A stretch of 62,458 nt of DNA, the filler included, from Basidiobolus ranarum (lineage: Eukaryota), in NCBI GenBank assembly GCA_040143965.1. It is 9 parts of 9 records of this genome, joined end to end, with 100 filler letters (N's around TTAATTAATTAA, not from the genome) between each part and the next. Parts side by side here need not be neighbours in the genome. Positions count along the whole stretch, not along the records: positions 20,897 to 27,751 come from JASJQH010001228.1; 8 more parts are not named here. One strand, given 5' to 3'. The notes under the pieces were generated by a model that saw only the letters and a list, made by a program, of their open reading frames with translations, was not told the DNA's origin and ran no database searches. The position numbers were made by a program, and so were the translations under genes. Positions within the stretch are counted from its first letter, which is position 1. Every line of letters starts with the position of its first letter. Below, piece after piece: positions 1 to 39,245 of this stretch.

Positions 1-863
1 TCGATGACGTTGCAATAAACCTTGGAGTTATCAGTGTTTCTCAAGACAATTCCTCCAGCACTGTTGCGGATGGTATTGTAGCGGATTGTAGCCTTACTAG
101 ACTTGACAGAAATGATTTCTGGATCACCGTCGCAAGCCTCAAAGAGATTGTATTGAACATAAGCACCAGATTCCGGCCCATTAGGGAAATCTTTATGCCC
201 GTTTCCAAGTGCAATAGCTTCACCACCATTGGAGGAAGCAGCCACAATGTCATGAAAGTATGAATGATCAACTTGAAAGTTTGTAGCAATAGGGACTGTC
301 TTGGAGTTTCCGTCAGAAGCCATGATAATTGGTGAGCCTTGGCCTGTCTTTGGTCCGAAATCACAACGATCAATACGAACAGAGTCTGAGCTGGCCTTGA
401 CGACAAGCCAATCATGATTTTTTCCATCGGCGGGATCTCTAATCTTGAATGATGATCTTGTAATACGACAGCTCTGGCAACCTTCAATTTCAACACGCTG
501 ACCGGAACCATTGAAGGTGAAGCCATCGAGTACTACGTACTCATTGTCTTTGAGGTTGAAATCATTGCTGAGAACTGCTTTACCAATATTCTTAGCACGG
601 ATCACAATTGGTGCATCCTGAGTACCCTTAGCATTCCGAACATCAACGATAGAACTATAGTCACCATCATTGAGAATGAAGCATGAACCAGGTGTAGCTT
701 TGCCTAACTTAGCGACAAGGTCTTTGGCGTTGGCTATTGGTAGTGTTTGAACACATGAAGGAAGTGGATCATTTAAAAGATCACTTTTGGGTAAAGCAGC
801 ATTGGCAGTAATGAAAACTGATGCTAGCACAGTACTTGCAAAAAGAGTAGATAGATGAACCAT
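1..863 (-). CDS. Secreted polysaccharide lyase family 6 (chondroitinase B/alginate lyase-like beta-helix), copy 1, 3' end cut by window/contig start
   Basis: ATG at 863 (MVHLSTLFASTVLASVF signal peptide). Reads through ILNDGDY, GTQDAPIVIRA, NGGEAIALG, CDGDPEIISVKS and GGIVLRNT, and is a clear paralog of the genes starting at 3267 and 5636. The ORF track shows only an out-of-frame shadow ORF (41..526). Confidence 0.85.
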   Translation of the reverse strand, partial: MVHLSTLFASTVLASVFITANAALPKSDLLNDPLPSCVQTLPIANAKDLVAKLGKATPGSCFILNDGDYSSIVDVRNAKGTQDAPIVIRAKNIGKAVLSNDFNLKDNEYVVLDGFTFNGSGQRVEIEGCQSCRITRSSFKIRDPADGKNHDWLVVKASSDSVRIDRCDFGPKTGQGSPIIMASDGNSKTVPIATNFQVDHSYFHDIVAASSNGGEAIALGNGHKDFPNGPESGAYVQYNLFEACDGDPEIISVKSSKATIRYNTIRNSAGGIVLRNTDNSKVYCNVI

Positions 864-1748
864 AGTGAATATGGTCTATAACAAGAGAAGTTCATCGTTT
901 TTTATATTGATTTATGACCGGAATGTAGTGCTCTCAAGTACAAAGGCATGATTGTACACATGTCTAGATGATATAATATACCGTAAAAACTTCCCCATTC
1001 AAAAACAAGGTAATTCATTAGCATTCAGAAACTTGTACAAGTACGACTATAACAAATTGGTAGATATCCGAATATCACTAACTGAAGTTCATTATCTCTT
1101 TAAAAATGACCCACAATTAGCTAGGCGCATGCTTGGCGTTAATACTATGCATTAGTGTATTTGAAACGGGGAATATCTTGTCCTGATTAATTTAGTAACC
1201 AATGTGTAACACAATTGACGAGCGACGCTTCATGGAAAGAGGCCTAAGATCTTCAAAGTAAGTGAATTATTCGGTTATAGCGTAAACTCGAACCAATGAT
1301 TTATTCACGTAATCCACCTGAGGATGCTGATACTATATACTTGAACAAGTTCGAACTTGAAAGAGCTCTATCTTCTTCAGTGCCCAGAGTTTTGTAGCTA
1401 ATTCCGATTGGAAAGATCAGCCATATGGATGGGAAAATCCAACTTAGTGTACATATTAGTGACACCTTACTATCGCTTAATATACCTTGGAAATCGGTCA
1501 ACCACTTATCAATTTAACCAAGTAATTGGAGGTCATCATTAAGTTAAGTTAATTGAAATGGACGAGCACATACAATATTGTAATGAACACAATCCACAAG
1601 CAACTAATGAATTCTAAAATTAGCGATGCTATCAATTTATTGGTGAATCTCGGTTCAACAAAAGAATTACGTAAATAGTGTGGTTCTAGCCTAAAACTTT
1701 TAGTCTGCATAAAGCATTAGGAAATATTACTGCAGGTAATGATGTAGC

Positions 1749-3267
1749 TTAAAGAGGAAAGTTTAATCCAACATCCTTGGGAGTCAATGGATTACGCTTG
1801 ACAGGGGCATTGGAAAGTTCATCAGCACCAATGTCTGGTTTTCCATCATTACGAGGTTGGCCCTGAATATCATCGTTAGTCGAAAAGATGGTTTTCACGG
1901 CAGTACTATTGACAGATGGACTTCCAGAAGTCAACAAATAGTCACTGTTCAATTTGAAATCAGCCACGGTAACAAACCCTTGAGCAGGAACATCTTTAGC
2001 ACCATTTAAGACCAAATTTCCAGAGTAAGAAGTTTTTGATTCCTTAGTCAACTTGAGAATGATATTGGAACCTCCGATTATGTTGTTAGCAAAGGTATTC
2101 TCAGATGGGAAAAGGGAGGGGTCAGTGGGATTTTCATTCCAGGACATTTCAATTGGGCCGAAAAGAGTATTATGGACCAACTCGGATTTACTGGCCGCTC
2201 TGTGGGAATCACCGCGCTTGGGACTCAACTAAAACATAATAGATGGGTAGTGAGTTTAGGGTTAGGGGCGGGATAGTTCGCCATAAAAATGACAATATAT
2301 TTACCGCAAGTGTGCGACCTTCAATATCGTAAATCAGATTATTAGAAACGATGTGACCAGTACCATGTATGCGAACGCCGGCGGAACCCTTCTTATTTTT
2401 ACCATCGATGACGTTGCAATAAACCTTGGAGTTATCAGTGTTTCTCAAGACAATTCCTCCAGCACTGTTGCGGATGGTATTGTAGCGGATTGTAGCTTTA
2501 CTAGACTTGACAGAAATGATTTCTGGGTCCCCATCACATGATTCAAAGAGATTGTATTGAACATAGGCACCAGATTCAGGCCCATTAGGAAAATCTGGAT
2601 GAGTATTTCCAAGTGCAATGGCCTCACCACCATTAGAAGAGGTAGGGATAAGGTCATGGAAGTATGAATGATCAACTTGAAAGTTCGTAGCAATAGGGTC
2701 TGTCTTGGAGGCTCCATTGGAAGCTATGATAATTGGGGAACCCTGAGCTTTCTTTGGTCCGAAATCACAACGATCAATACGAACTGAATCTGAATTGGCC
2801 TTGACGACAACCCAATCGTAATTTCCTCCATCGGTAGGATCTCTAATCTTGAATGATGATCTTGTGATGCGGCAACTCTGACAACCGACGATTTCGATTC
2901 GTTGGGACGGGCCATTGAAGGTAAAGCCGTCGAGTACTACATACGCATTATCCCTGAAACTCATTATTTGGGTGAGAACAGCCTTACCAATATTCTTAGC
3001 ACGGATAACGATTGGTGCATCCCGAGTACCCTTTGCATTCCGAATATCCCCAATAGCACTATAGTCGCCGTCATTTAGAATGAAGCATGAGCCAGGTGTA
3101 GCTTTGCCTAGTTTGGCGACAAGGTCTTTGGCGTTGGCTATTGGCAGTGTTTGTAAGCAAGGTGGAAGTGGGTCATTTAAGAGATCACTCTTTGGCAGAG
3201 CAGCATTGGCAGTGATGAAAACAGATGCGAGAACAGTACTCGCAAAAAGAGTTGATAGATGAACCAT
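1749..3267 (-). CDS. Secreted PL6 polysaccharide lyase, copy 2, 480 aa, two exons (3267-2305, 2228-1749)
   Basis: Phase-0 intron 2229-2304 (GTAAAT...TTTTAG) joins the 352-aa and 159-aa ORFs. PL6-type motifs NGGE, EIISVKS, LR, GVRIHG. C-terminal DIQGQPR...PDIGADE tail resembles bacterial beta-helix proteins. Confidence 0.85.
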
Positions 3268-4134
3268 GGTGAATATTGTTTACGAAGAGGGATGCGTGCT
3301 GCATTTTATATAGCTTATGGACATAGAATTTGTACATTTCATTCTAAGCCTATGCTTGTACACCTGATAGAAACCTCCATTCGAAAACAAATTACTGATT
3401 TGTCTCTAGAAACTAGTACAAGTACGACTGTTGTAAAAATACGAATACCAGAACTTCACTTACTAAAGCTCAACACTTGCTATAAAAACTCTATCGATTG
3501 AATGGAGATAAACTTGGGCTGGCACTTTTCCTTTGTGGATTGGAACAGCAAGGTATCCGAACCCAATTGGTATGAGTACAAGTGTGTAACATAATAAATT
3601 GAAGGTGTACAAGAGCAAGGTAAAGAGTTGAAGATCAATTTTGCACATAAAGTATTGGGCTACAATAAAATTTCAAATTGGACGGACACTACAAATTGTC
3701 CAACTCTACTTTATATGGAGTTCTTGATACTCTCAGATACAAATTGCTTTATTGTCATATCCCATAGGAAAGGATCAGCCATGGGAAAATCTAGCCGAGT
3801 CTTTTACATTGGTTATTTATTTATTTAATTGAATCGGGGGAGAGAGCCAAATTTTGTCTCCATAATTGGGTATCTATTTATCTAAAGTACCACATAGTTT
3901 CAACCACGACTATTTCGAGTTAGTAATAGATATAACTAACAGTGTGTGATGACATGACCCACAAATAAAAGATCCAAAATTAATGAATGCTAAATCAGTG
4001 ATACTATTAGTTTATTGGTATTCTAGTGAATTTCGGTTCGACAAAAGTATTACGTAAATAATGAATGCAATTTCAATGTAAGATTTTTGTTTGGTATTAA
4101 GACTAGTAAATGCCACAATGTACAATATTACGGT

Positions 4135-5636
4135 TTAAAGAGGAAAGCTTGGTCCAACATCCTCGGGAGTTAATGGATTACGCTTGATGCGTGCATTAGA
4201 GAGCTCGTCAGCACCGACGTCTGGTTTTCCATCATCACGAGGTTGACCTTGAATATCATCGCTAACCCAGAAGGTGGTAGTCACAGCGGTGCTATTGACG
4301 GATGGACTGCTGGAAGTCAACATGTAGTTACTGTTCAATTTGAAATCAGCTACGGCAGCGAAACCATTAGCGGGAACATCTTTGGCACTTTTTAAGACCA
4401 AATTTCCAGTGTAGATAGTATTTGATTCTTTGGTCATTTTGAGAAGAACATTGGTACCACCGATGATGTTGTTAGCAATTGTGTTATCGGATGGGAAAAG
4501 GGATGAGTCAGTTGGATTTTCATTCCAAGACATTTCAATTGGAGCAAAGAAAGTATTATGGACAGATTTTGACTTGTTAGCAGGCCTGTGAGTATCACCA
4601 CGCTTGGGACTCAGCTATATATAAAAAGATTAGAAACTTGTCTATCTATTTTTAAATGAACAGTATATTGTACCATGAGTGCATTTCCATCGATGTTGTA
4701 AATCAGATTGTTGGAGATACTGTGGCCGGTACCATGTAAGCGAATTCCTGTGGACCCTTTTTTGTTGTTTCCATCGATGGTGTTACCATAAACCTTGGAG
4801 TTATCAGTGTTTCTCAAGACAATGCCTCCAGCACTATTACGAATAGTATTGTAACGGAGAGTAGCGCCGCTAGACTTAACAGAAATGATTTCTGCATCGC
4901 CATCGCAGGCTTCGAAGAGATTGTATTGGACGTTGGCGCCGGATTCGGGACCATTAGGGAAATCTGGATGAGTATTTCCAAGTGCAATGGCCTCACCACC
5001 ATTAGAAGAGGTAGGGATAAGGTCATGGAAGTAAGAACGATCAATTTGCAAGTTAGTGGCAATTGGGACTGTTTTGGAGGCTCCATTAGAAGCCATAATA
5101 ATTGGAGAACCCTGAGCTTTCTTTGGTCCGAAATCACAACGATCAATACGAACCGAATCTGAGTTGGCCTTGATGACTAGCCAATCGTAATTTTTTCCAT
5201 CGGTAGGATCTCTAATCTTGAATGATGATCTTGTAATACGACAGCTCTGGCAACCTTCAATTTCAACACGCTGACCGGAACCATTGAAGGTGAAGCCGTC
5301 GAGGACTACATACGCATTGTCTCTGAATTTGAATACTTTGGTGAGAACAGCCTTACCAGTATTCTTAGCGCGGATAACAATTGGTGCAGCTTGGGTACCC
5401 TTAGCATTACGAATATCCCCAATAGCACTGTAGTCACCGTCGTTTAGAATGAAGCATGAACCAGGTGTAGCTTTCCCTAACTTAGCGACAAGATCTTTAG
5501 CATCAGATACTGGCAATGTTTGAATACAAGGTGGAAGTGGATCATCAAGGACATCACGCTCAGGCAAAGCAGCACTGCCGGTAACAAAAATGCAAGCAAG
5601 TATAGTACTAGCAAAGAGAGTAGATAGATGAACCAT
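4135..5636 (-). CDS. Secreted PL6 polysaccharide lyase, copy 3, 480 aa, two exons (5636-4674, 4614-4135)
   Basis: Intron 4615-4673 (GTACAA...ATATAG) at the same codon as in copy 2, with identical exon lengths (963+480 nt) and the same motifs. Confidence 0.85.
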
Positions 5637-6871
5637 GAAGAATGTGAATGTATTTCAATGCAAGAGGAATGCACCACTTTATATTCACAACTGAATGAAC
5701 AATACATCCTTAGGTTTCAAACACCAACAAGCGTATCGTAATTAACCGTTTAACATCCGGGGACACAAGCAACTAAGAGGATATATTTCTGTATTCAATT
5801 TCCCAACAACAAATGATGACTAGTGAAATTAAGAAAATGCACCAGTTCAAGCGCCGTACCATCCATATATATCCCATTGTATGACTTAAGTATTACTGCA
5901 ACTGTATGTTCACAGTGGATAGGAAAATTCGAGAGCAAATGGTTAGGAAGAAATGCAGTGTGATCTTATTGATCAAGCTCTGCCCAAGCCTTGCATTAAA
6001 TACTGGTTCTATTCGCAATATGCTTAATGTAACCGATGAATCCATATAAAGTTAAAGCACTATTTTTTGTTTCATATGGGCGCCAAGTTATCTGGATTAT
6101 CAGGTGTGGATCTTCGTGGCAGGCTATAGGGGGAATATATTGTGCAGTACTTCTATGAGAAAATAACCAACGATGATGAACAAGATAATCCAATAAAACT
6201 GTGGTGGTAGTGATTGTGGGGAACAAAAAGTGGCTACAGTGGTCCTAAATATTGCATGTTCAATTCATTGCGGACTTAATCCTTAACCCTAAATATGTCA
6301 TAATTAAATTACTTTGCTCAAAGTTGCATAAGTAGCCTAGGTTGATGAGGTTTCTAAACATAGATATCTACAATTACTAAGTTTGCTAAGATATAGGTGT
6401 GTAAGCTCAATAAAATGTTTTTGTGAGACTTGTTCCTACTATTACAATAGTTTAACTTTTGCTACAAGTGGTGAGATGCTACTAAGGTGCAAAGCTTGTG
6501 ACAAATTTTACCCGGTAATGTTGCACTAGACAGATATGTAGCACACTTCATTTCCAACGAATATTCTCGAATGAGGGATTGGTATTTATCCACTGTAGTG
6601 GTTGATCTTAAATTTGTGAATATCTAGAATTTAATAGTGATTACATATTGGTATGTAAAGCTCTTTATTCTTCCTCACTATATACAATAATACTAGTATA
6701 TGTAAGGTTATCTTCAGGCTATATGATTACTCGTATAGTGCTTTGATGTTAGCTACTCAAGGAGTGAAGGACCAATGACACTTCATTACCAACATTCATA
6801 TATTATTTTAATTACATATAGCGATAGCTCACTGAGTGGTTGATTTTATATATATATAGCCAACTTGAAAG

Positions 6872-6971
6872 NNNNNNNNNNNNNNNNNNNNNNNNNNNNN
6901 NNNNNNNNNNNNNNNTTAATTAATTAANNNNNNNNNNNNNNNNNNNNNNNNNNNNNNNNNNNNNNNNNNNN
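6872..6971. other. Artificial contig linker N44-TTAATTAATTAA-N44
   Basis: Stop-in-all-frames spacer, repeated identically eight times in the window. Confidence 0.98.
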
Positions 6972-13836: not shown

Positions 13837-13936
13837 NNNNNNNNNNNNNNNNNNNNNNNNNNNNNNNNNNNNNNNNNNNNTTAATTAATTAANNNNNNNN
13901 NNNNNNNNNNNNNNNNNNNNNNNNNNNNNNNNNNNN
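13837..13936. other. Artificial contig linker
   Basis: N44-TTAATTAATTAA-N44. Confidence 0.98.
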
Positions 13937-20796: not shown

Positions 20797-20896
20797 NNNN
20801 NNNNNNNNNNNNNNNNNNNNNNNNNNNNNNNNNNNNNNNNTTAATTAATTAANNNNNNNNNNNNNNNNNNNNNNNNNNNNNNNNNNNNNNNNNNNN
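20797..20896. other. Artificial contig linker
   Basis: N44-TTAATTAATTAA-N44. Confidence 0.98.
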
Positions 20897-21681
20897 TATA
20901 GCAGTTAAGTGGATTTTCAGATATTTGAATGGTACTGTGGATCTATGCTTAAAATACACAAATTCTGGACTAAACTTTGATCTGATGGGATATTCAGACG
21001 CAAATTGGGGAAGAGATATTGAAGACAGGAGATCTACAACAGGATACTTATTTCTTTGCTGTAATGGAACTATTTCTTGGAATTCAAAGAAACAACCTAC
21101 CATAGCACTTTCAACAACAGAAGCTGAATACATGGCTGCCTCTGAAGCAACAAAAGAAGCAATATGGTTAAGAAAACACTTAACAGATTTTGGTTATTCT
21201 CACAATTCACCATCTACAATATTTTAAGATATTCAAAGTTGTATCAAATTAGCTAAAAATCCCACATTTCACAATAGAAGCAAACATATAGATATTAAGC
21301 ATCACTTCATTAGAGAGACTATAGAGAATAAGTTCATTGACTTAACTTATTGTCCTACAAAAGACATGATTGCTGATATATCAACCAAACCATCAGCTAG
21401 ACAGAAATTTGAGAAATATAGACCGTTATTAGGATTAATTTATACGACTATTTAGTTGTGGGAGCATGTTGAAATTTGCATTGCCTAAACATGTATATTG
21501 TCATGTATAACTTAGTACTTAGTTATCTTATAATACACAAAGATATTAACAATTATTCTTGATTGGAATTTATTTAGAATATTGACACCAACTTAGAAGT
21601 TCTCAGATATATAGATTTTTCAAACTTGTGCTTGCAGCCCCAAACTATGCACACATGTTCCTGGGACCTTCTGTAACACAT
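20897..21681 (+). mobile_element. Ty1/copia 3' end: degenerate RNase H, polypurine tract and truncated 3' LTR (from 21467)
   Basis: GYSDANWG..EDRRSTTGY, ISWNSKKQPTIALSTTEAEYMA, SKHIDIKHHFIRE, CPTKDMIAD, with an in-frame stop at 21225-21227. GTGGGAGCA precedes TGTTGAAATT. Confidence 0.95.
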
Positions 21682-21801: not shown

Positions 21802-21873
21802 TACCTACTGCCAGGATTGAACTGGCAACCTTCAGTTTACAAGACTGATGCACTACCACTGCGCAAAGTAGGC
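21802..21873 (-). tRNA. tRNA-Thr(TGT), possibly a pseudogene
   Basis: GCCTACT TT GCGC AGTGGTA GTGC A TCAGT CTTGTAA ACTGA AGGTT GCCAG TTCAATC CTGGC AGTAGGT A folds as a complete 72-nt cloverleaf with anticodon TGT. Position 9 is T rather than a purine and there is no clean oligo-T terminator. Confidence 0.8.
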
Positions 21874-22449
21874 TTTACCAATATGTAAATAAATGGGATT
21901 GTTCAACAAAATGCAATGGCATATTTAGACACTAAACAGTGTTCCAATTGCCTTCATATTTTATACCTACATATTTCCAAACTAAGCCTCAATCTGCATC
22001 AGGTTTCACAATTGCTACATTAATAATAATAAATAATAGTCAAATATTCAAAAATTTATATCTTAAAAACTAAATGGTCAAGCAATAACAAGTTCCAAGA
22101 GGTTAATTTCTTATTATTATTCTGTTCTAGGTATAAAGTGTACAACAAATAATACTTGGAAACAGAAGTTATCAGACATTGTAAATGGGTCATTATTCTG
22201 ATAGATAAATTCCAAATTTGTAGCTCTTTGAGATTCAGCAGGAATGATTAAGAATAAGCAGCACAAACAAAATAAAGTCAATTAGGAACTCAAATCAATA
22301 AAAAGCAGCCGGAATTGAACAATTCAGGAGCCTATCTGTTACAGGGAGACTTTTTTGTTATCATTTATCATTGATTCTTAGGACAAGTAGAGATTGGAGA
22401 AGTCCATTCAATGGATACAGCAGCAACTTTTTATCTTAGTGAGTATTGT

Positions 22450-22549
22450 ACTAGTGCCATGCCTCTAAAAGTAACTTTCTGTTGTTAGGTTGCTTTTTAC
22501 TCTTCAGAGCAAGAACTATAATCAATACAAAGATGATGGTGAATTTCAT
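22450..22549 (-). pseudogene. Leader-only relic of the Kex2-repeat peptide precursor family
   Basis: ATG AAA TTC ACC ATC ATC TTT GTA (MKFTIIFVLIIVLAL). Its upstream ~200 bp resembles that of the copy starting at 23532. Confidence 0.5.
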
Positions 22550-22829
22550 GGCCATATTGGAAAGACACTTGAGGTTGATGACACAATGGAGCAGTTTGAG
22601 AGACCATTGTTCTATTGTCTAGCTACTTGCATAGTTTGGTGGACCATATCATAGTTAAATATATATCAATGGAGAATTTGCATTACTAGGTTACAATATT
22701 TCAGAATATTATGCAATACAAACTATGATCATTCTGGTGAATATCATAAGAAATATTTCTCACAGTATGTATTCTTCACTCAGTATTTGGAGATTTGACT
22801 AGACTCATTGGAAATGATTCTTCACTCAT

Positions 22830-22890
22830 GGCAGGGCCACAGAACCATCTGCTGCACACCTCATGAAAATCTCTTTTATCTTCTACCATA
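22830..22890 (-). pseudogene. Single core-peptide relic (DKR-DFHEVCSRWFCG)
   Basis: Direct translation of the minus strand; homologous to the cores at 23185-25254. Confidence 0.65.
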
Positions 22891-23184
22891 ACCATATATA
22901 TTATGTTCCTCAATTACTTACCTACTTTACTACAGTAAGAAATTTATTAAATTATTCAAATGAATACAAAAAAGAATTCCAAATTACTACAGTTTGGTTG
23001 ATGCTATGACTCCATATCAGTAAAGAATTGGTTGTACATTGTTAGTTGCATACAGGCCATATATATAGCATGAATCTTCAGATTACTGGTGATAGAGCTG
23101 CTCACTATAGGTTAAATTAAGTGAAACACTAGACTTTTGGTACTGAAGTCAATTACTGAGAGTATCTTCATTTATTATTGATGA

Positions 23185-23532
23185 TCAGAGGTGATCATGT
23201 AGAGATATGCTTTGTTTCTTGGTGTAACTCCGGAGCCATCTGCCACATATGTCATGTAGATCTTGCTTGTTACTGATGGTATATGGTTGTTCATGTACTG
23301 TTTGCTCTTCATCTTTTACAGGGGTTGTTTTCTCAGAGTCAGCAGTGGTTGTTTCTATTTGAACAGCTGTAGAGAATTTCTTACATTTAGTATGGCCACA
23401 GAACCATCTAACACACAGATCATGAAGGTCTCTTTTATGTCCTGCCACACCTTTGAAATCCTGATTGGCAGGTATGCATTGTACTGTCAGAGTAAGAGCA
23501 GTAGAAGCTACATAGATGGTGATGAATTTGAT
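23185..23532 (-). pseudogene. Secreted Kex2-processed repeat-peptide precursor, start codon lost (ATC in place of ATG)
   Basis: Open frame (I)KFITIYVASTALTLTVQC-IPANQDFKGVAGHKR-DLHDLCVRWFCGHT-KC...NKQ-DLHDICGRWLRSYT-KK. No in-frame ATG before the upstream stop at 23581-23583. Confidence 0.75.
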
Positions 23533-24364
23533 GACAATATATATAAAGATACTTGAGGCTGTTATTCTAACAGAGTTGATTTAAAATTATCATCTTGTCA
23601 CCTGGCTATTTATATTAGGCAAAATACATGGCATTGGTGGTTCCCAGAATATATCAATCAGATTAGATGATTTCCATTTCTGGTGAATATCTCAACAATG
23701 TCTAGAGCTACCCATAGAATACACTTCTGTCCATTAGTTGCCAAGGGAGTATTTCTTAGTACAGATAGGAAGGAATGGAGCAATTGCTGGTTATTGGATT
23801 CCTGGAATATTAGGTGATACTAAACATTATCTCAAATATAGTATGAGGACAAAAAAACAGTTAACTCCACAGTTTCTAGATCAATCTATCTATATATATA
23901 GGTGATGCAAATTAGTATATCAAATTACATGAGTAAGAAATTGTTACACTTTGTGAATCAATCTACCCAGTCAAATATCCAATCACTATACACATTACCC
24001 TTACATTTCAGTTCAGAGATATCTGTGCCAGTTTGTTAGCCACACTTTCAAGCCTTAATTGACAATATTATTAGGTTCAAAAATTTAATACAACATATTG
24101 CTCACAACAGAGTGAGAGATAATTGATTTTGGAGGTATTGTTTGACAAATGATTACTAGGGTAAGCACAGATTTACTACAACCAAAATGAATAGTTGAAT
24201 AATGGGTGTAAATCCATTGACTGTGGATGCGTGAATCAATACTTGATACATCAGGGAAGTAATTGGCAGACAATCAACCATCAACAGATGCTATGCAAAA
24301 CTCAGTTTCCAAGGTTGCTGACCTTTCTAATGCAGATATGATATTGTTACAAAGAATTACACCT

Positions 24365-24705
24365 CATTTCCTGGTATACCAGTAGAACCATCTGCCACAC
24401 AGGTAGTGTAGATCTTGTTTATTGCTGGTGGTAGATGCTTTTTCTCTTATTGTTTACTCTTTAATTCAAGTAGAAGTAAGTTGCTTAGAGCCAGTAATTG
24501 TAGATTTGTCTATGCCCACTTTAAAGGCATTCTTGTGTTTAGTACAAACACAGAACCATCCACCTGCTGCACAAATCATGTAAATCCCTCTTGACTCCAG
24601 CTAATACTTTGGCATCTTGACCCAAAGGTAGGCTTTGAGCAGTAATAGTAAGAACAGTAAAGATGGTGGTTCCAAGTTGGATATAAAGACAATAAGTTTA
24701 TTATT
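24365..24705 (-). pseudogene. Kex2-repeat peptide precursor pseudogene
   Basis: ...FTVLTITAQS-LPLGQDAKVLAGVKR-DLHDLCSRW[4-nt insertion]FCVCT-KH...NKQ-DLHYLCGRWFYWYT-RK*, with two internal stops. Confidence 0.75.
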
Positions 24706-24899
24706 ACATCAGTATAGTAGACTAAAAGGTTAGAGACACCCAACATTGTATCAGTGAAGTGTTGGTAATTCAGTGTTAAATATATATTGAGTGTGAACAT
24801 AATGTTAATCCTCAGAGATACTCATTATACTTCCCAGTTGAAAGTTGTACTCCATGTAAACCTTGCTGTACCAATTATGTACTGAGAGAAATTGCTTTT

Positions 24900-25254
24900 T
24901 TTAATGACCAAAGATTATCCAGTAGAGAAGCACTTCCTCTTTTTGTATGCCCACAAAACCACCTTCCACTTATGTTGTGTAGATCCCACTTGTCACTGAT
25001 GGTAGGTTGTTTTTGATACACCGCTTTGCGTTTAATTTTAACAAAAGTAGTCTCTTTAAAGTCAGTAATTATTTTTACAATTTGAACAACTGCAGGGGCT
25101 CCTGCTTGGTATGACTGCAGAACTATCTACCACACAAGTCATGCAGACCTCCTTTATTGCCTACTACACCTTTGACATCCTGATCAGTAGGTAAGCGTTT
25201 TACAATCCGTAAAGTAAGAGAAGTTGAAACTACAAAGAAGCTAATGAACTTCAA
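24900..25254 (-). pseudogene. Kex2-repeat peptide precursor pseudogene
   Basis: (TTG)KFISFFVVSTSLTL...LPTDQDVKGVVGNKG-GLHDLCGR*FCSHT-KQ [frameshift]...DKW-DLHNISGRWFCGHT-KR. Confidence 0.75.
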
Positions 25255-26481
25255 GGCTGTATTTGATATTTCTGATTAACTTTAGAATTGAGTTGGCTGA
25301 ATACAATGATTTGGCCACCTAGCTACTTATCTGCATAGTGATTATATCTGAAGCTAAGCATATATATCAGGTAATACCCAATTGTGCCATTCTTAGAGTA
25401 TCTTGCCATACAAACTAGGCTTAATTCTATTGAACAACTTCTGGGCCAAGAGATGCACCAACACTCAAAACTGCTTTGTTTCTCTTCATGGATTTTTTCA
25501 AATAACAATATTTTTTCATTTACTTCATATTTAATGTGCTATTTGTCACACTTCTTAAGCAGAGCTCAAATGATAGTTTGTAATGTTATGAAGGTGATTG
25601 CATCAATCTTGGTGATATTATATATATATACATTCACTGCAGAGAGTCAATCTGTTTTGAGCCAAACATGATTTTAACACTAAGAGTATACATTATTAGC
25701 TATATTTCTAAACTCCACTTGATATAAGAGCTAAACTTTAAAAATATGACTACTTTAACTTTATATATAAAGAAACTACTGCTTTTCAGCTATCAATGTG
25801 CTAAAATTATCTTTAGAAGCAACTTTTCCCTCAATATCTTGAGAATTTACCTAACATTGATGAAGAAGAATATCTTGCTCTGAAATAAACCTTGAAAGAG
25901 CCAAGTTCTGCCCCCACAAATGTATGCACCAAAATGAGCTAGATTCAACAAATTATCACCAACAGCTGCACAGATGCCATAAAACCTGATTGCATGGAAT
26001 AAGGTGGCACCCAAATCTGGCAAACCTGGAGAGAAAGTTTGTGGAACTGATATTCATACTTTCACTAACAGGATTGCTGCAACTTGAATCTAAGCATCTA
26101 GCTTATACAGGCATACTTAAATCTATTCTTGACCCAATGACTATATGTACAATAGTTTATAGCTAAAGATTTGAATTGAAGTGCTAGATACAAGTAGCCA
26201 CATGGTCCCTTATCTTACTCTATCATGATAAATACAATCTACTAAACCTTTGAACATAATCCATGGTGATTCTTTTGATGCAAATAGATGTGGCTATAAA
26301 AGAAACAAAATATGTTCTCTTCAAGAGTTAGTTCTAATCTTGACATTCTTTTCACTAACATTGTGCAAATTTTGAAGATCTTTGGGCACAAAATTGTGGC
26401 AAAGTTACTTTTATACATTAATGGCTTGAAGGCAGCATATCAATTGCACATATAATGTCAAAATAGTTATCAAATTGCTAA

Positions 26482-28207: not shown

Positions 28208-30051
28208 ATGGAATACAAAAGGATAGCAGTTAAAAAGTTTCCCCGATTGCCCAATAGAAAAACTCCCGAATCACGGTACTGGAGAAAGTTCAAGGTAAGC
28301 CTCAACTCTTTGTCACAAACCCGAGTGGAGAGAAAGATGATTACTGTCTTATTTTTACGGGTTGATCAACGAACTTTTCTAAATAACTACTTCATTGTTT
28401 AGTCCCCTATTCTTATTAAAGAATATGCTTCAGTCACCTCCATCAATTTCTCTCCTGTAGCCCCTTACGATTTTGCTGTTACTTCCTCCGCTCGTGTTCA
28501 GGTATATAGCTCCAAGACACACAGTGTCAAAAAAACTATATCTCGTTTCAAGGATACCGCATATAGTGGATCTTTCAGAAATGACGGCAAGCTGATTGTG
28601 TCGGGTGACGGTACTGGACTTGTTCAGGTTGGTGATTTTTCTCCATTTAATCAAAAATTCGAGCGTATCCTGATATTTTTTCTTCAAAGGTCTTCGATGT
28701 GAACAGCCGTGCTATCCTCAGAACTTTCAGAGGTCACGAAAAGTAAGTAACTCCTTACATCATACAAGTAATTAGTACCTTGCTGACAGGGACTTTTTTT
28801 TAGCCCTGTGCATGTAGCCAAATTTTCTCCCAATAATACTCATATCCTCTCCGCTTCCGACGATAAGACCGTTCGTATTTGGGACATCCCAAGTGAAACT
28901 GCTGTGTCTGTCTTCGAAGATCATACGGTATGAATAATCCCTCTTTCGCGTCTTATGTAGAGTTTTCTCTCAAAATCCAAGCCACTAAATAACTTTCATA
29001 CCGATTATAGGATTATGTACGCGCTGGTGTTGTTAGTATGGATAACCCTAATCTTGTTTTATCTGGTTCCTACGACCGCACTGTTAAATTATGGGATTTG
29101 AGATCAAATTCTTGTGCTATTTCCATGAACCATGGCGAGCCAGTAGAGGATGTCTTGATGTTCCCTGGTGGCGGTCTTGTTGTGTCTGCCGGTGGTCCCA
29201 ATGTTAAAATATTTGACTTGTTGTCTGGTGGCCGTACTCTTCAAACACTTTCAAACCATCAAAAGACAGTTACTTCCATGTGTTTCGATGGATCTTACTC
29301 TCGACTTCTTACCGGTTCTCTCGATCATCATGTCAAAGTATATAATGTGCAAGATTATAAGGTTGTTCACAGTGTTAAATACCCCGCACCTATTCTCAGT
29401 ATTGCCTTGTCGCCTGATGATACTCACTTGGTAGCTGGTATGGCTTCTGGACTTCTTTCTGTTCGTCAAAGAGTTGTCAAGCCTCAAGAAACCTTCATGA
29501 CTCGTCGTTCAGACCAAATCAATGGTGGTACTTATCAATACTTTGTACGTGGTAAAGGATACAATCCTACACAGGATGATTTCAAGGTGGAGACCATGAA
29601 GAGAAAGAAACTGACCGATTACGACAAATATCTTAAAGCTTTCCAATACTCCAATGCATTGGATGCTGTGTTGAGTAAAAACCGAAACCCCTTGATCGTT
29701 TTCTCTCTTATTGAGGAACTTGTGCATCGTGATGGTCTTCGTAGTTCTCTTCAAGGAAGAGACGATCTTTCTTTAGAGCCAATTGTTCAATTCTTGGTCA
29801 AAAACATTGCCCATCCTAGATACACTGGACTACTTGTAGATGTAGCCAATGTCATCTTGGATATGTATAGTGTAGTACTTGGACAGTCACCACTTATTGA
29901 CGAACTATTCCAAAGCTTGAATGAAAGGGTCAAGAAGGAGATAAACTTCGAAAAAGACTTGATGAAGGTGATTGGATCATTGGACATGCTGTTCTCCAAA
30001 GCCTCCAGCAAAGCCCCCAACATGCCAGTCAGTCAGGTGAATGGACATTAG
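28208..30051 (+). CDS. UTP15: U3 snoRNA-associated protein 15 (WD40 plus UTP15 C-terminal domain), five exons
   Basis: TPESRYWRKFK|SPILIKE, PYDFAVTSSARVQIY, ISRFKDTAYSGSFRNDGKL, WD repeats, YDKYLKAFQYSNALD, ELVHRDGLRSSLQGRD. Four GT-AG introns, the first at 28295-28402. Confidence 0.95.
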
Positions 30052-39056: not shown

Positions 39057-39245
39057 TTAGCAGATACCCCATGAGCAGCATTTATTTCCATCTGAGCCAC
39101 ATCCGTACCACTGACAGCAGCCACGAGCTTCGATATTACCACTGCTGCTACTAACTTCAGCTTCTGCTGGAACTGGATTAGCCTCAGCGGTCAAGGTAAC
39201 CATAGCGAATGCAGTTAAAAGGAGAGCGGCGACGGAAAGTTTCAT
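39057..39245 (-). CDS. Small secreted cysteine-rich prepropeptide, type B copy 1 (predicted mature GCCQWYGCGSDGNKCCSWGIC)
   Basis: True start is probably ATG 39245 (MKLSVAALLL), by alignment with paralogs; 62 aa. TATAAAA on the minus strand at ~39314-39320. Confidence 0.9.
   Translation of the reverse strand: MKLSVAALLLTAFAMVTLTAEANPVPAEAEVSSSSGNIEARGCCQWYGCGSDGNKCCSWGIC

Follow-up and report, generated by a model that had tools for sequence, protein, structure and literature searches.

A decayed tandem array from a Basidiobolus family of putative Kex2-processed repeat-peptide precursors

A five-unit pseudogene array

The window, the whole 62,458-nucleotide stretch of Basidiobolus ranarum DNA analysed here (filler included), carries seven copies of a 14-residue core motif between positions 22830 and 25149, all on the minus strand, and a six-frame motif scan found none elsewhere in the window. 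These are exactly the seven cores that an earlier note on this DNA had claimed; the core pattern occurred with a mean of 0.015 and a maximum of 1 in 200 mononucleotide shuffles of the window. Searches with tblastn and blastn resolved five tandem units, A to E, bearing out the proposed layout of three two-core precursors and two relics. The features are listed below in the order of the minus strand, ending with a tRNA gene that flanks the array.

24875..25254, minus strand: unit A, two-core pseudogene (motif scan, tblastn)
25108-25149, minus strand: unit A core 1, with an in-frame TAG inside and KG, not KR, before it
24944-24985, minus strand: unit A core 2, first Cys replaced by Ser
24364..24676, minus strand: unit B, two-core pseudogene, start codon gone
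24541-24586, minus strand: unit B core 1, disrupted by a 4-nt insertion at 24556-24559; motif-scan match at 24545-24586
24373-24414, minus strand: unit B core 2, second Cys replaced by Tyr
23185..23532, minus strand: unit C, the best-preserved copy, an open frame of 115 codons
23389-23430, minus strand: unit C core 1, KR before and KC after
23221-23262, minus strand: unit C core 2, KQ before, second Cys lost
22776..22898, minus strand: unit D, relic with a single core, signal-peptide region decayed past recognition
22830-22871, minus strand: unit D core, KR before
22451..22577, minus strand: unit E, relic with a signal-peptide-like stretch, then a stop, and no core
21802..21873, minus strand: tRNA-Thr(TGT) gene, context outside the family

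All five units are pseudogenes, and the array would yield no product. Unit A begins with TTG in place of ATG (25252-25254) and is frameshifted near 25093-25099, the spacer of unit B contains two stops, and unit C has ATC in place of ATG (23530-23532), with no in-frame ATG upstream; unit E retains an ATG at 22547-22549. Lost start codons, stops, frameshifts and missing Cys or KR residues thus confirm the earlier judgement that every copy here is inactivated.

At the DNA level (blastn), identity to unit C was 68.7% over 380 nt for unit A, 66% over 294 nt for unit B, 80% over 54 nt for unit D and 75% over 95 nt for unit E. No relic units were detected by tblastn or blastn between B and C, or outside A and E. 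The similarity of unit A extends about 33 nt beyond its stop and then ends. Duplication of the upstream regions, also suggested earlier, is weakly borne out, as blastn similarity stops about 29 nt 5' of the unit E start.

Intact relatives and the origin of the array

Intact relatives with an ATG, a signal peptide (by heuristic) and KR-flanked cores, which the earlier note had proposed to seek elsewhere, do exist. Protein searches and a cluster look-up identified 27 annotated relatives, all from Basidiobolus: 22 from B. ranarum and 5 from B. meristosporus. A profile search of 1.84 billion representative proteins gave seven matches, six of them real and one a spurious bacterial repeat protein, while the same approach on 5.8 billion proteins gave 25 matches, every one from Basidiobolus; the cluster look-up added two further relatives beyond the profile searches. 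Judged by these searches, the family is confined to the genus Basidiobolus. The relatives are mostly arranged as tandem clusters, and B. ranarum has at least 22 annotated genes with 43 cores. Several B. meristosporus gene models resemble fusions or fragments of tandem single-core genes, so family copy numbers depend on automatic annotation.

Intact members are about 116-136 aa long. Their signal peptide is followed by a short pro-region with D-K-R at its end, the 14-residue core and a dibasic site; next come a spacer that is variable and acidic, about 26-46 aa in length and likewise closed by D-K-R, then a second core, K/R-K-R and a short tail. Two cores are present in 23 of the 27 members and one core in 4. 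Each of the 24 complete N-termini reads M-K/R, then a hydrophobic core, with small residues at -3/-1; signal peptides were assigned on these 24 by this hydrophobicity and -3/-1 heuristic only.

The cores are the best-conserved part of the family. KR directly precedes every one of the 50 cores found across the 27 relatives, and a dibasic KR, KK, RK or RR follows 48. Thirty cores are exactly DLHDLCGRWFCGHT, letter for letter the ancestral core that had been reconstructed from the damaged copies in the window. Both Cys are kept in 49/50 cores, as are Asp1 (49/50) and His3 (49/50); the ring Arg is variable, being Arg or Gly, with Gly in many members. Across 153 pairs drawn from 18 two-core B. ranarum proteins, mean identity was 0.95 and 0.97 for the two cores, against 0.52 over the signal and pro-region together, 0.44 over the spacer and 0.45 over the tail. 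Better conservation of cores than of spacers, as the earlier note had it, is therefore strong in the intact family and weak in the window, where the first cores of units A, B and C show 5-6 synonymous and 3-4 non-synonymous codon differences, compared with 4-6 and 13-18 in the pre-regions and 5-6 and 20-22 in the spacers. Moderate conservation is also seen in the tail and, within the spacer, over the EQ..T.SDKR stretch, so that function may extend beyond the core.

In a tree built from 128 columns, with 3/20 inner branches strongly supported, unit A was sister to K7432_013233 (support 93/87) and unit B to K7432_013234 (96/89), which are consecutive intact B. ranarum genes. Unit C, with 64-65% identity to B. 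ranarum proteins, lay nearest by path to K7432_013235, its placement being without resolution in the tree. Because units A and B group with consecutive intact genes, the window array probably represents a decayed counterpart, orthologous or homeologous, of K7432_013232-013236, an intact cluster of B. ranarum. End branches were 0.44-0.68 for the window units versus 0.07-0.18. Set beside its intact counterpart cluster, the dead array would be a small-scale case, found in nature, of birth-and-death turnover among peptide-gene arrays.

Proposed processing and precursor class

We read the window as holding a decayed five-pseudogene tandem array of a Basidiobolus-specific family of small secreted precursors of the Kex2-processed repeat protein (KEP) kind, at a probability of about 0.75. 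A KEP family giving a disulfide-looped 14-mer is the most likely interpretation of the precursor sequences. The precursor would enter the ER and later meet a Golgi kexin cutting after every KR, and a Kex1-type carboxypeptidase would trim the trailing basic residues. Each two-core precursor would release two copies of DLHDLCGRWFCGHT, in which the two Cys (Cys6-Cys11) would most likely close a six-residue disulfide ring; the calculated mass of the oxidised 14-mer is about 1658 Da, the average masses being about 1659.8 reduced and about 1657.8 with one disulfide. The new N-terminus after cleavage would read X-X-His. The Kex2, Kex1 and Ste13 processing route is established for alpha-factor-type precursors (PMC6339444), and peptides derived from KEPs were detected by mass spectrometry in Agaricomycetes (PMC9769878). 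The many tandem genes and cores of B. ranarum (at least 22 genes, mostly in tandem) suggest that both the peptide and its dose are under selection.

Published definitions of KEPs fit the family to different extents. Le Marquer et al. 2019 define KEPs by cleavage at KR/RR into four or more fragments with a repeated motif among them (PMC6339444), and typical members give, in silico, a pro-region, core, spacer, core and tail. A signal peptide, also part of that definition, was found by the heuristic in 24/24 relatives with complete N-termini, and the start codons are lost in window units A-C. Umemura 2020 asks for three or more tandem repeats, each of 8 aa or longer, lying between Kex2 sites (PMC7329392); family members have two cores or one. 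Two B. meristosporus proteins, ORX98272.1 and ORX98273.1, are nevertheless entered, undescribed, as KEP type 468 in Table S2 of that survey, whose pipeline required a SignalP-4.1 signal peptide for listed members (PMC7329392). ORX98273.1 is a family member recovered in our searches. The family is thus not wholly new, two of its B. meristosporus members having been tabulated previously as KEP type 468, and this entry supports the KEP architecture that the earlier note had recognised. With the KEPs of both surveys the family shares a signal peptide, near-identical repeats between KR or other dibasic sites, and no DUF3328 nearby; it differs from KEPs in the sense of Umemura in having mostly two cores per gene, dose coming from many tandem genes. 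The literature text searched gave no description of the family, the core or the B. ranarum family size, and Basidiobolus and the core motif were absent from four supplementary files of Le Marquer et al. 2019.

No fold is predicted for family members. AlphaFold2 models of 21 sequences had a mean pLDDT of 50, values above 56 being confined to the signal and tail helices, and a pTM of 0.21; an ESM Atlas model had a pLDDT of 0.49 and a pTM of 0.14. The ESM Atlas returned nothing at 0.9 or above, and structural matches were all at or below TM 0.35. When 25 residues around core 1 were searched against PDB sequences, no match was significant: the best, at E-values of 0.6-0.7, were to a C2H2 zinc finger and to the knob domain of a bovine antibody, which carries a similar string, C-G-R-W-x-C-G-H. 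Pfam scans of five members gave no family assignment and no transposon domain. In 4/5 of the scanned proteins zf-RING_13 matched only 10-22-residue stretches over C-x4-C-x-H, with one member reaching 27.1 bits (cut-off 25) as a sum over two stretches and three falling below. A RING-like zinc finger was accordingly rejected, these being short partial matches and not a full-length profile match above the gathering score.

Members could instead be uncut, effector-like small secreted repeat proteins with four cysteines, in which the KR pairs are incidental. The four Cys of a two-core protein could form pairs across the repeats, AlphaFold2 predicts a helical C-terminal tail at modest confidence, and processing in the family is a prediction from sequence. 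Incidental pairs, however, would hardly stand before 50/50 cores, with a dibasic site after 48/50; conservation collapses beyond the cores, single-core members occur, and neither a fold nor packing of core against core is predicted by AlphaFold2 or the ESM Atlas model, so we consider this reading quite improbable. The cores could also be substrates of tailoring enzymes, adding for example a Trp or Cys cross-link beyond a plain disulfide, which would make the products strict RiPPs, dikaritin-like or of a new class. The KEP architecture is common to ustiloxin-type precursors (PMC7329392), and the invariant Trp, Phe, Cys and His suit cross-link chemistry, but the short, Tyr-rich motifs typical of dikaritins are missing from the cores, no match to DUF3328/UstYa, tyrosinase or P450 was found in the 75 frames scanned of the 116 in the window of at least 75 aa, and the Umemura table gives no DUF3328 near ORX98272.1 and ORX98273.1 (PMC7329392). 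With no DUF3328 gene found nearby in either set, the dikaritin part of the earlier comparison is unsupported, and tailoring of this kind seems unlikely, although unlinked enzymes might act on the cores.

At the locus itself, the open frame of unit C and its one good KR-preceded core might suggest that this copy at least still functions, through non-AUG initiation or if the lesions are assembly errors. Against this, most lesions in the window are not homopolymer indels but substitutions, in start codons (ATC, TTG or CTT for ATG), in cysteines (Ser, Arg or Tyr for Cys) and in dibasic sites (KG, KQ or KW for KR), core 2 has lost a Cys and its KR, core 1 has no trailing dibasic site, and the end branches of the window units are long; we hold a functional unit C to be very unlikely. 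A transposon-derived motif or a chance pattern has next to no probability. The tRNA gene adjoins the array, as does what we take, by resemblance, to be a copia-like relic, and on one metagenome contig (L003) about nine residues of a LINE-type reverse-transcriptase frame are identical to the core's C-terminal half together with KR. That match, however, was picked out with a search pattern derived from the motif and has nothing else in common with the family, a set of short secreted proteins that lack transposon domains, and seven occurrences stand against a shuffle mean of 0.015. Transposon origin, which the earlier note had named as an alternative that would undo its proposal, is rejected, this stretch of a reverse-transcriptase motif on a single contig being the sole overlap. 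The metagenome pattern scan as a whole gave 45 matches at 6 loci and no family member; five loci hold one common unrelated frame containing K-R-D-L-H-D-L-C-G-R and were set aside as pattern-selected chance matches.

Candidate roles of the 14-mer

Basidiobolus inhabits the guts of vertebrates and can also cause human infection. To our knowledge, zygomycete-grade fungi have hardly been explored for peptide signals or peptide natural products. Le Marquer et al. describe what KEPs do in early-diverging fungi as still to be elucidated (PMC6339444). For the peptide proposed here, we tentatively favour an extracellular ligand or signal that the fungus itself, or its neighbours, would sense. A metal-binding (copper) peptide is a weaker possibility, a peptide aimed at competitors or the animal host is somewhat less likely again, and some other role has a small chance.

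The alpha-factor precursors of S. cerevisiae, MF-alpha1 and MF-alpha2, share with the family a signal peptide and a pro-region as well as KR-delimited, Trp-containing 12-14-mer repeats. MF-alpha2 carries two repeats, and two-cysteine alpha-type pheromones occur in Dothideomycetes, Xylona and Trichosporon (PMC6339444). A language-model feature search ranked an MF_alpha cluster fourth (0.79), a lead only. The alpha-factor cores, however, have no similarity to the Basidiobolus cores, the Pfam profiles MF_alpha and MF_alpha_N gave no match at E up to 10 in the five members scanned, and no Ste13-type X-Ala/X-Pro dipeptides follow KR, the cores starting with Asp-Leu in 49/50 cases and Asn-Leu in one. 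We know of no receptor or mating link for the Basidiobolus peptide. Urotensin II, with which the earlier note compared the ring, shares the C-x4-C spacing and aromatic residues within the ring, a likeness of ring size alone; oxytocin and vasopressin also have six-residue disulfide rings. An Arg-Trp-Phe pharmacophore as in melanocortin/agouti peptides was considered and dropped, the ring Arg being Gly in many members, and any Arg-centred pharmacophore is unlikely because this position varies between Arg and Gly.

A different comparison is offered by ATCUN peptides, defined by an H2N-X-X-His terminus (PMC7701195), which include the Cu/Ni-binding N-termini of serum albumin and hepcidin-25 (PMC7701195, PMC6121404). 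In 49/50 cores of the Basidiobolus family the third residue after KR is His, and if kexin cuts after KR the core would begin Asp-Leu-His, with His3 behind a free amine. Hepcidin is a convertase-released, cysteine-containing peptide, as the core likewise would be. The likeness to ATCUN peptides is a pattern match alone, without homology, and an ATCUN role does not account for the invariant ring. A KEP-derived Cu(II)/Ni(II) ATCUN peptide, acting in metal capture or in copper-dependent antagonism in the animal gut, is a doubtful but possible candidate; a literature search on ATCUN and Kex2 found no KEP of this copper-binding kind in print.

With a nearly invariant 14-mer in at least 43 copies in B. 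ranarum, a predictable mass, a probable disulfide ring and the copper-binding N-terminal pattern, the family is a clean target, directly testable by peptidomics and with synthetic peptide. For an ATCUN peptide, more than 40 genomic core copies would lead to one looped 14-mer in which a second His, two Asp and the ring back the site, and both a copper-binding and a copper-activated form can be envisaged.

Units and lesions of the array

Seven cores (the 14-residue repeat peptide with two cysteines), all on the minus strand, were found at 22830–25149 and none elsewhere, using a minus-strand reading of 22000–25800 and a six-frame pattern scan of the window. They are exactly the seven listed in the earlier note; across 200 shuffles the pattern was matched a mean of 0.015 times (maximum 1). 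Using tblastn with relatives and blastn with unit C, we delimited five tandem units, three with two cores (A, B and C) and two relics (D and E).

Units of the array (tblastn/blastn)
25254–24875, minus: unit A
24676–24364, minus: unit B
23532–23185, minus: unit C
22898–22776, minus: unit D
22577–22451, minus: unit E

Successive first cores are 563, 1156 and 559 nt apart. The surroundings are AT-rich and gene-poor (GC 0.32–0.35), and a tRNA-Thr(TGT) gene (21802–21873, minus) adjoins the array.

No unit is intact (0/5). Unit A has TTG at the position of its relatives' ATG, KG in place of KR before core 1, a TAG within that core and a frameshift near 25093–25099; in core 2, Ser replaces the first Cys. 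In unit B the start codon is absent, core 1 contains a 4-nt insertion, the spacer has two stops and the second Cys of core 2 is Tyr. Unit C keeps a 115-codon open frame but starts with ATC, without an upstream in-frame ATG; its core 1 lacks the trailing dibasic site, and core 2 is preceded by KQ and has lost one Cys. Unit D is a lone core without a leader, and unit E a leader with an ATG and no core. As the majority of these lesions are substitutions, assembly error is an unlikely source of them.

The window contains 16 runs of 44 N, paired (first pair 6872–6915 and 6928–6971) and spaced by ~6.94 kb, which break several frames, for example at 13837–13936 and 20797–20896; they have more the look of withheld sequence than of gaps in an assembly. 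One frame interrupted in this way (20898–21227, plus) lies beside the array, with the tRNA gene between; we take it to resemble a Ty1/copia polyprotein near its C-terminus, and it had no Pfam match at E ≤ 0.001.

Intact relatives and conservation of the core

A word-indexed search with unit C returned two intact B. ranarum proteins of 128–129 aa (65% identity). With a profile made from this pair, a search of 1.84 billion cluster representatives of any length (E ≤ 0.001) recovered seven proteins, six of them genuine and all from Basidiobolus; the seventh, a bacterial repeat protein, was spurious. A wider profile, searched against 5.8 billion proteins (length range 26–238 aa), gave 25, again only from Basidiobolus, B. 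ranarum contributing 21 and B. meristosporus 4; with two extra cluster members the set comprises 27 (22 and 5, respectively). Relatives with intact KR-flanked cores, which the earlier note had proposed seeking, thus exist. By locus tag and contig they form tandem groups of six genes (7,692-bp contig), five (6,667-bp contig), three, two and two. A JGI metagenome scan yielded no family members. In one metagenome contig (L003, 1297–1548), a LINE-type reverse-transcriptase frame matches the C-terminal half of the core, with KR, residue for residue over ~9 positions; this frame, chosen by the pattern search itself and otherwise unlike the family, was rejected. Within the data searched, the family is restricted to the genus Basidiobolus; since annotation easily overlooks short genes, its absence elsewhere is unproven.

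The 27 proteins hold 50 cores, every one preceded by KR (50/50) and 48 followed by a dibasic site (KR 28, KK 11, RK 8 and RR 1). Thirty read exactly DLHDLCGRWFCGHT, the very sequence that the earlier note had reconstructed from the dead copies, and six have the B. meristosporus form (Phe5, Gly8 and Val14). Both Cys, Asp1 and His3 are each kept in 49 of the 50; C-G-x-W-F-C, Leu2, His3, Asp4, Gly12 and His13 are nearly fixed, with the ring Arg exchangeable for Gly. All 24 complete N-termini are signal-peptide-like by a simple heuristic. Some B. meristosporus gene models are fragments or have two leader-like segments, and the unit there may be a single-core gene in tandem, fused by the annotator.

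Three B. ranarum proteins (P0005, P0011 and P0018) form a sub-group with a Gly8 core variant and a longer tail, at whose extreme C-terminus lies a third, truncated ring motif without a preceding KR. These tails suggest that the ring may be the minimal conserved element.

AlphaFold2 (21-sequence alignment) gave a mean pLDDT of 50 and pTM of 0.21, without packing between the two cores and with only the signal and C-terminal helices above ~56; the ESM Atlas model was equally poor. This predicted lack of structure is weak evidence that a pro-peptide would be a better fit than a folded four-cysteine protein.

Pairwise comparison of 18 B. ranarum proteins with two cores (153 pairs) gave mean identities of 0.95 for core 1 and 0.97 for core 2, against 0.52 for the signal peptide plus pro-region, 0.44 for the spacer and 0.45 for the tail. 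The mature peptide is conserved across the family, while leader and spacers vary freely. Arms-race toxins have the reverse pattern, and that of this family suggests that the peptide's target or its chemistry is fixed.

Origin of the array

Units A, B and C differ from one another by 5–6 synonymous and 3–4 non-synonymous codons in the first cores (14 codons), by 4–6 and 13–18 in the pre-regions, and by 5–6 and 20–22 in the spacers; core–core synonymous divergence was saturated in 12 of 21 pairs. Small as this sample is, it says that the units are old rather than recent duplicates, with cores under peptide selection before their death.

A maximum-likelihood tree was built from 23 rows: 20 family proteins, each 110 aa or longer, and the three two-core units A, B and C, translated across every break with an X in its place (P0005, P0011, P0012 and the four short proteins were left out). 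Unit B was sister to K7432_013234 (support 96/89) and unit A to K7432_013233 (93/87); unit C had no resolved position, its shortest path being to K7432_013235. These three annotated B. ranarum genes are consecutive in a five-gene cluster, in an order matching A, B and C, and the window units have long terminal branches. We therefore read the array as probably the counterpart, orthologous or homeologous, of this intact cluster in a decayed state. A UTP15 exon in the window (29011–30051) shares 95% identity with its B. ranarum counterpart (next best match, 70%), which places the window in Basidiobolus and this locus near, yet not identical to, the B. ranarum assembly compared.

Known systems, possible role and other genes

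By the criteria of Le Marquer (PMC6339444) for Kex2-processed repeat proteins (KEPs), the family fits the class, whereas the definition in Umemura 2020 (PMC7329392) calls for three repeats, which the family lacks. Even so, Table S2 of that survey lists ORX98273.1, a family member here, with ORX98272.1 as KEP type 468, its entries bearing neither a DUF3328 neighbour nor a pheromone label; B. meristosporus is given as the strain richest in KEPs (43). In the literature searched, this was the only work joining Basidiobolus and Kex2, and no paper printed the core or its sub-strings. Titles and abstract openings among the matches listed for Basidiobolus and pheromones held nothing suggestive of the family. 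A dikaritin-type system is not supported: the scan, which covered 75 of the window's 116 frames of 75 aa or more, gave no match to DUF3328, its (UstYa) partner gene. Five family proteins compared with Pfam at E up to 10 are not, by sequence, of the alpha-factor family. It is well supported that this KEP family is real, uncharacterised and previously touched by one survey table; the window locus is a dead copy of it.

Kexin cleaves after KR, Kex1 removes the basic residues and the repeats are freed via the secretory pathway (PMC6339444); mushroom KEP peptides have been detected by mass spectrometry (PMC9769878). Each precursor would accordingly be expected to yield two 14-mers, oxidised to a Cys6–Cys11 ring and with a net charge of about −1 at pH 7. 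The cut after KR would also leave an X-X-His N-terminus, the ATCUN copper/nickel-binding pattern as defined in PMC7701195. We favour a role as ligand or signal (probability about 0.45) over the alternatives: metal binding seems unlikely, and antagonism or host interaction somewhat unlikelier still.

Elsewhere in the window, 39057–39245 (minus) has the look of a further gene for a small secreted peptide (62 aa): its start resembles a signal peptide, its pro-region is rich in Ala, Glu and Pro, and six Cys lie in a C-terminal stretch of 21 residues. Its match to Pfam Conotoxin is weak (18.3 bits; cut-off 25.1), and an identical sequence is in the ESM Atlas, with no informative neighbour there. 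At 3–5654 (minus) lie three tandem paralogues of a secreted right-handed beta-helix lyase, apparently of two exons each, the first truncated by the window end; the copy at 2209–3279 matches Pfam Chondroitinas_B (E 5.6e-34).
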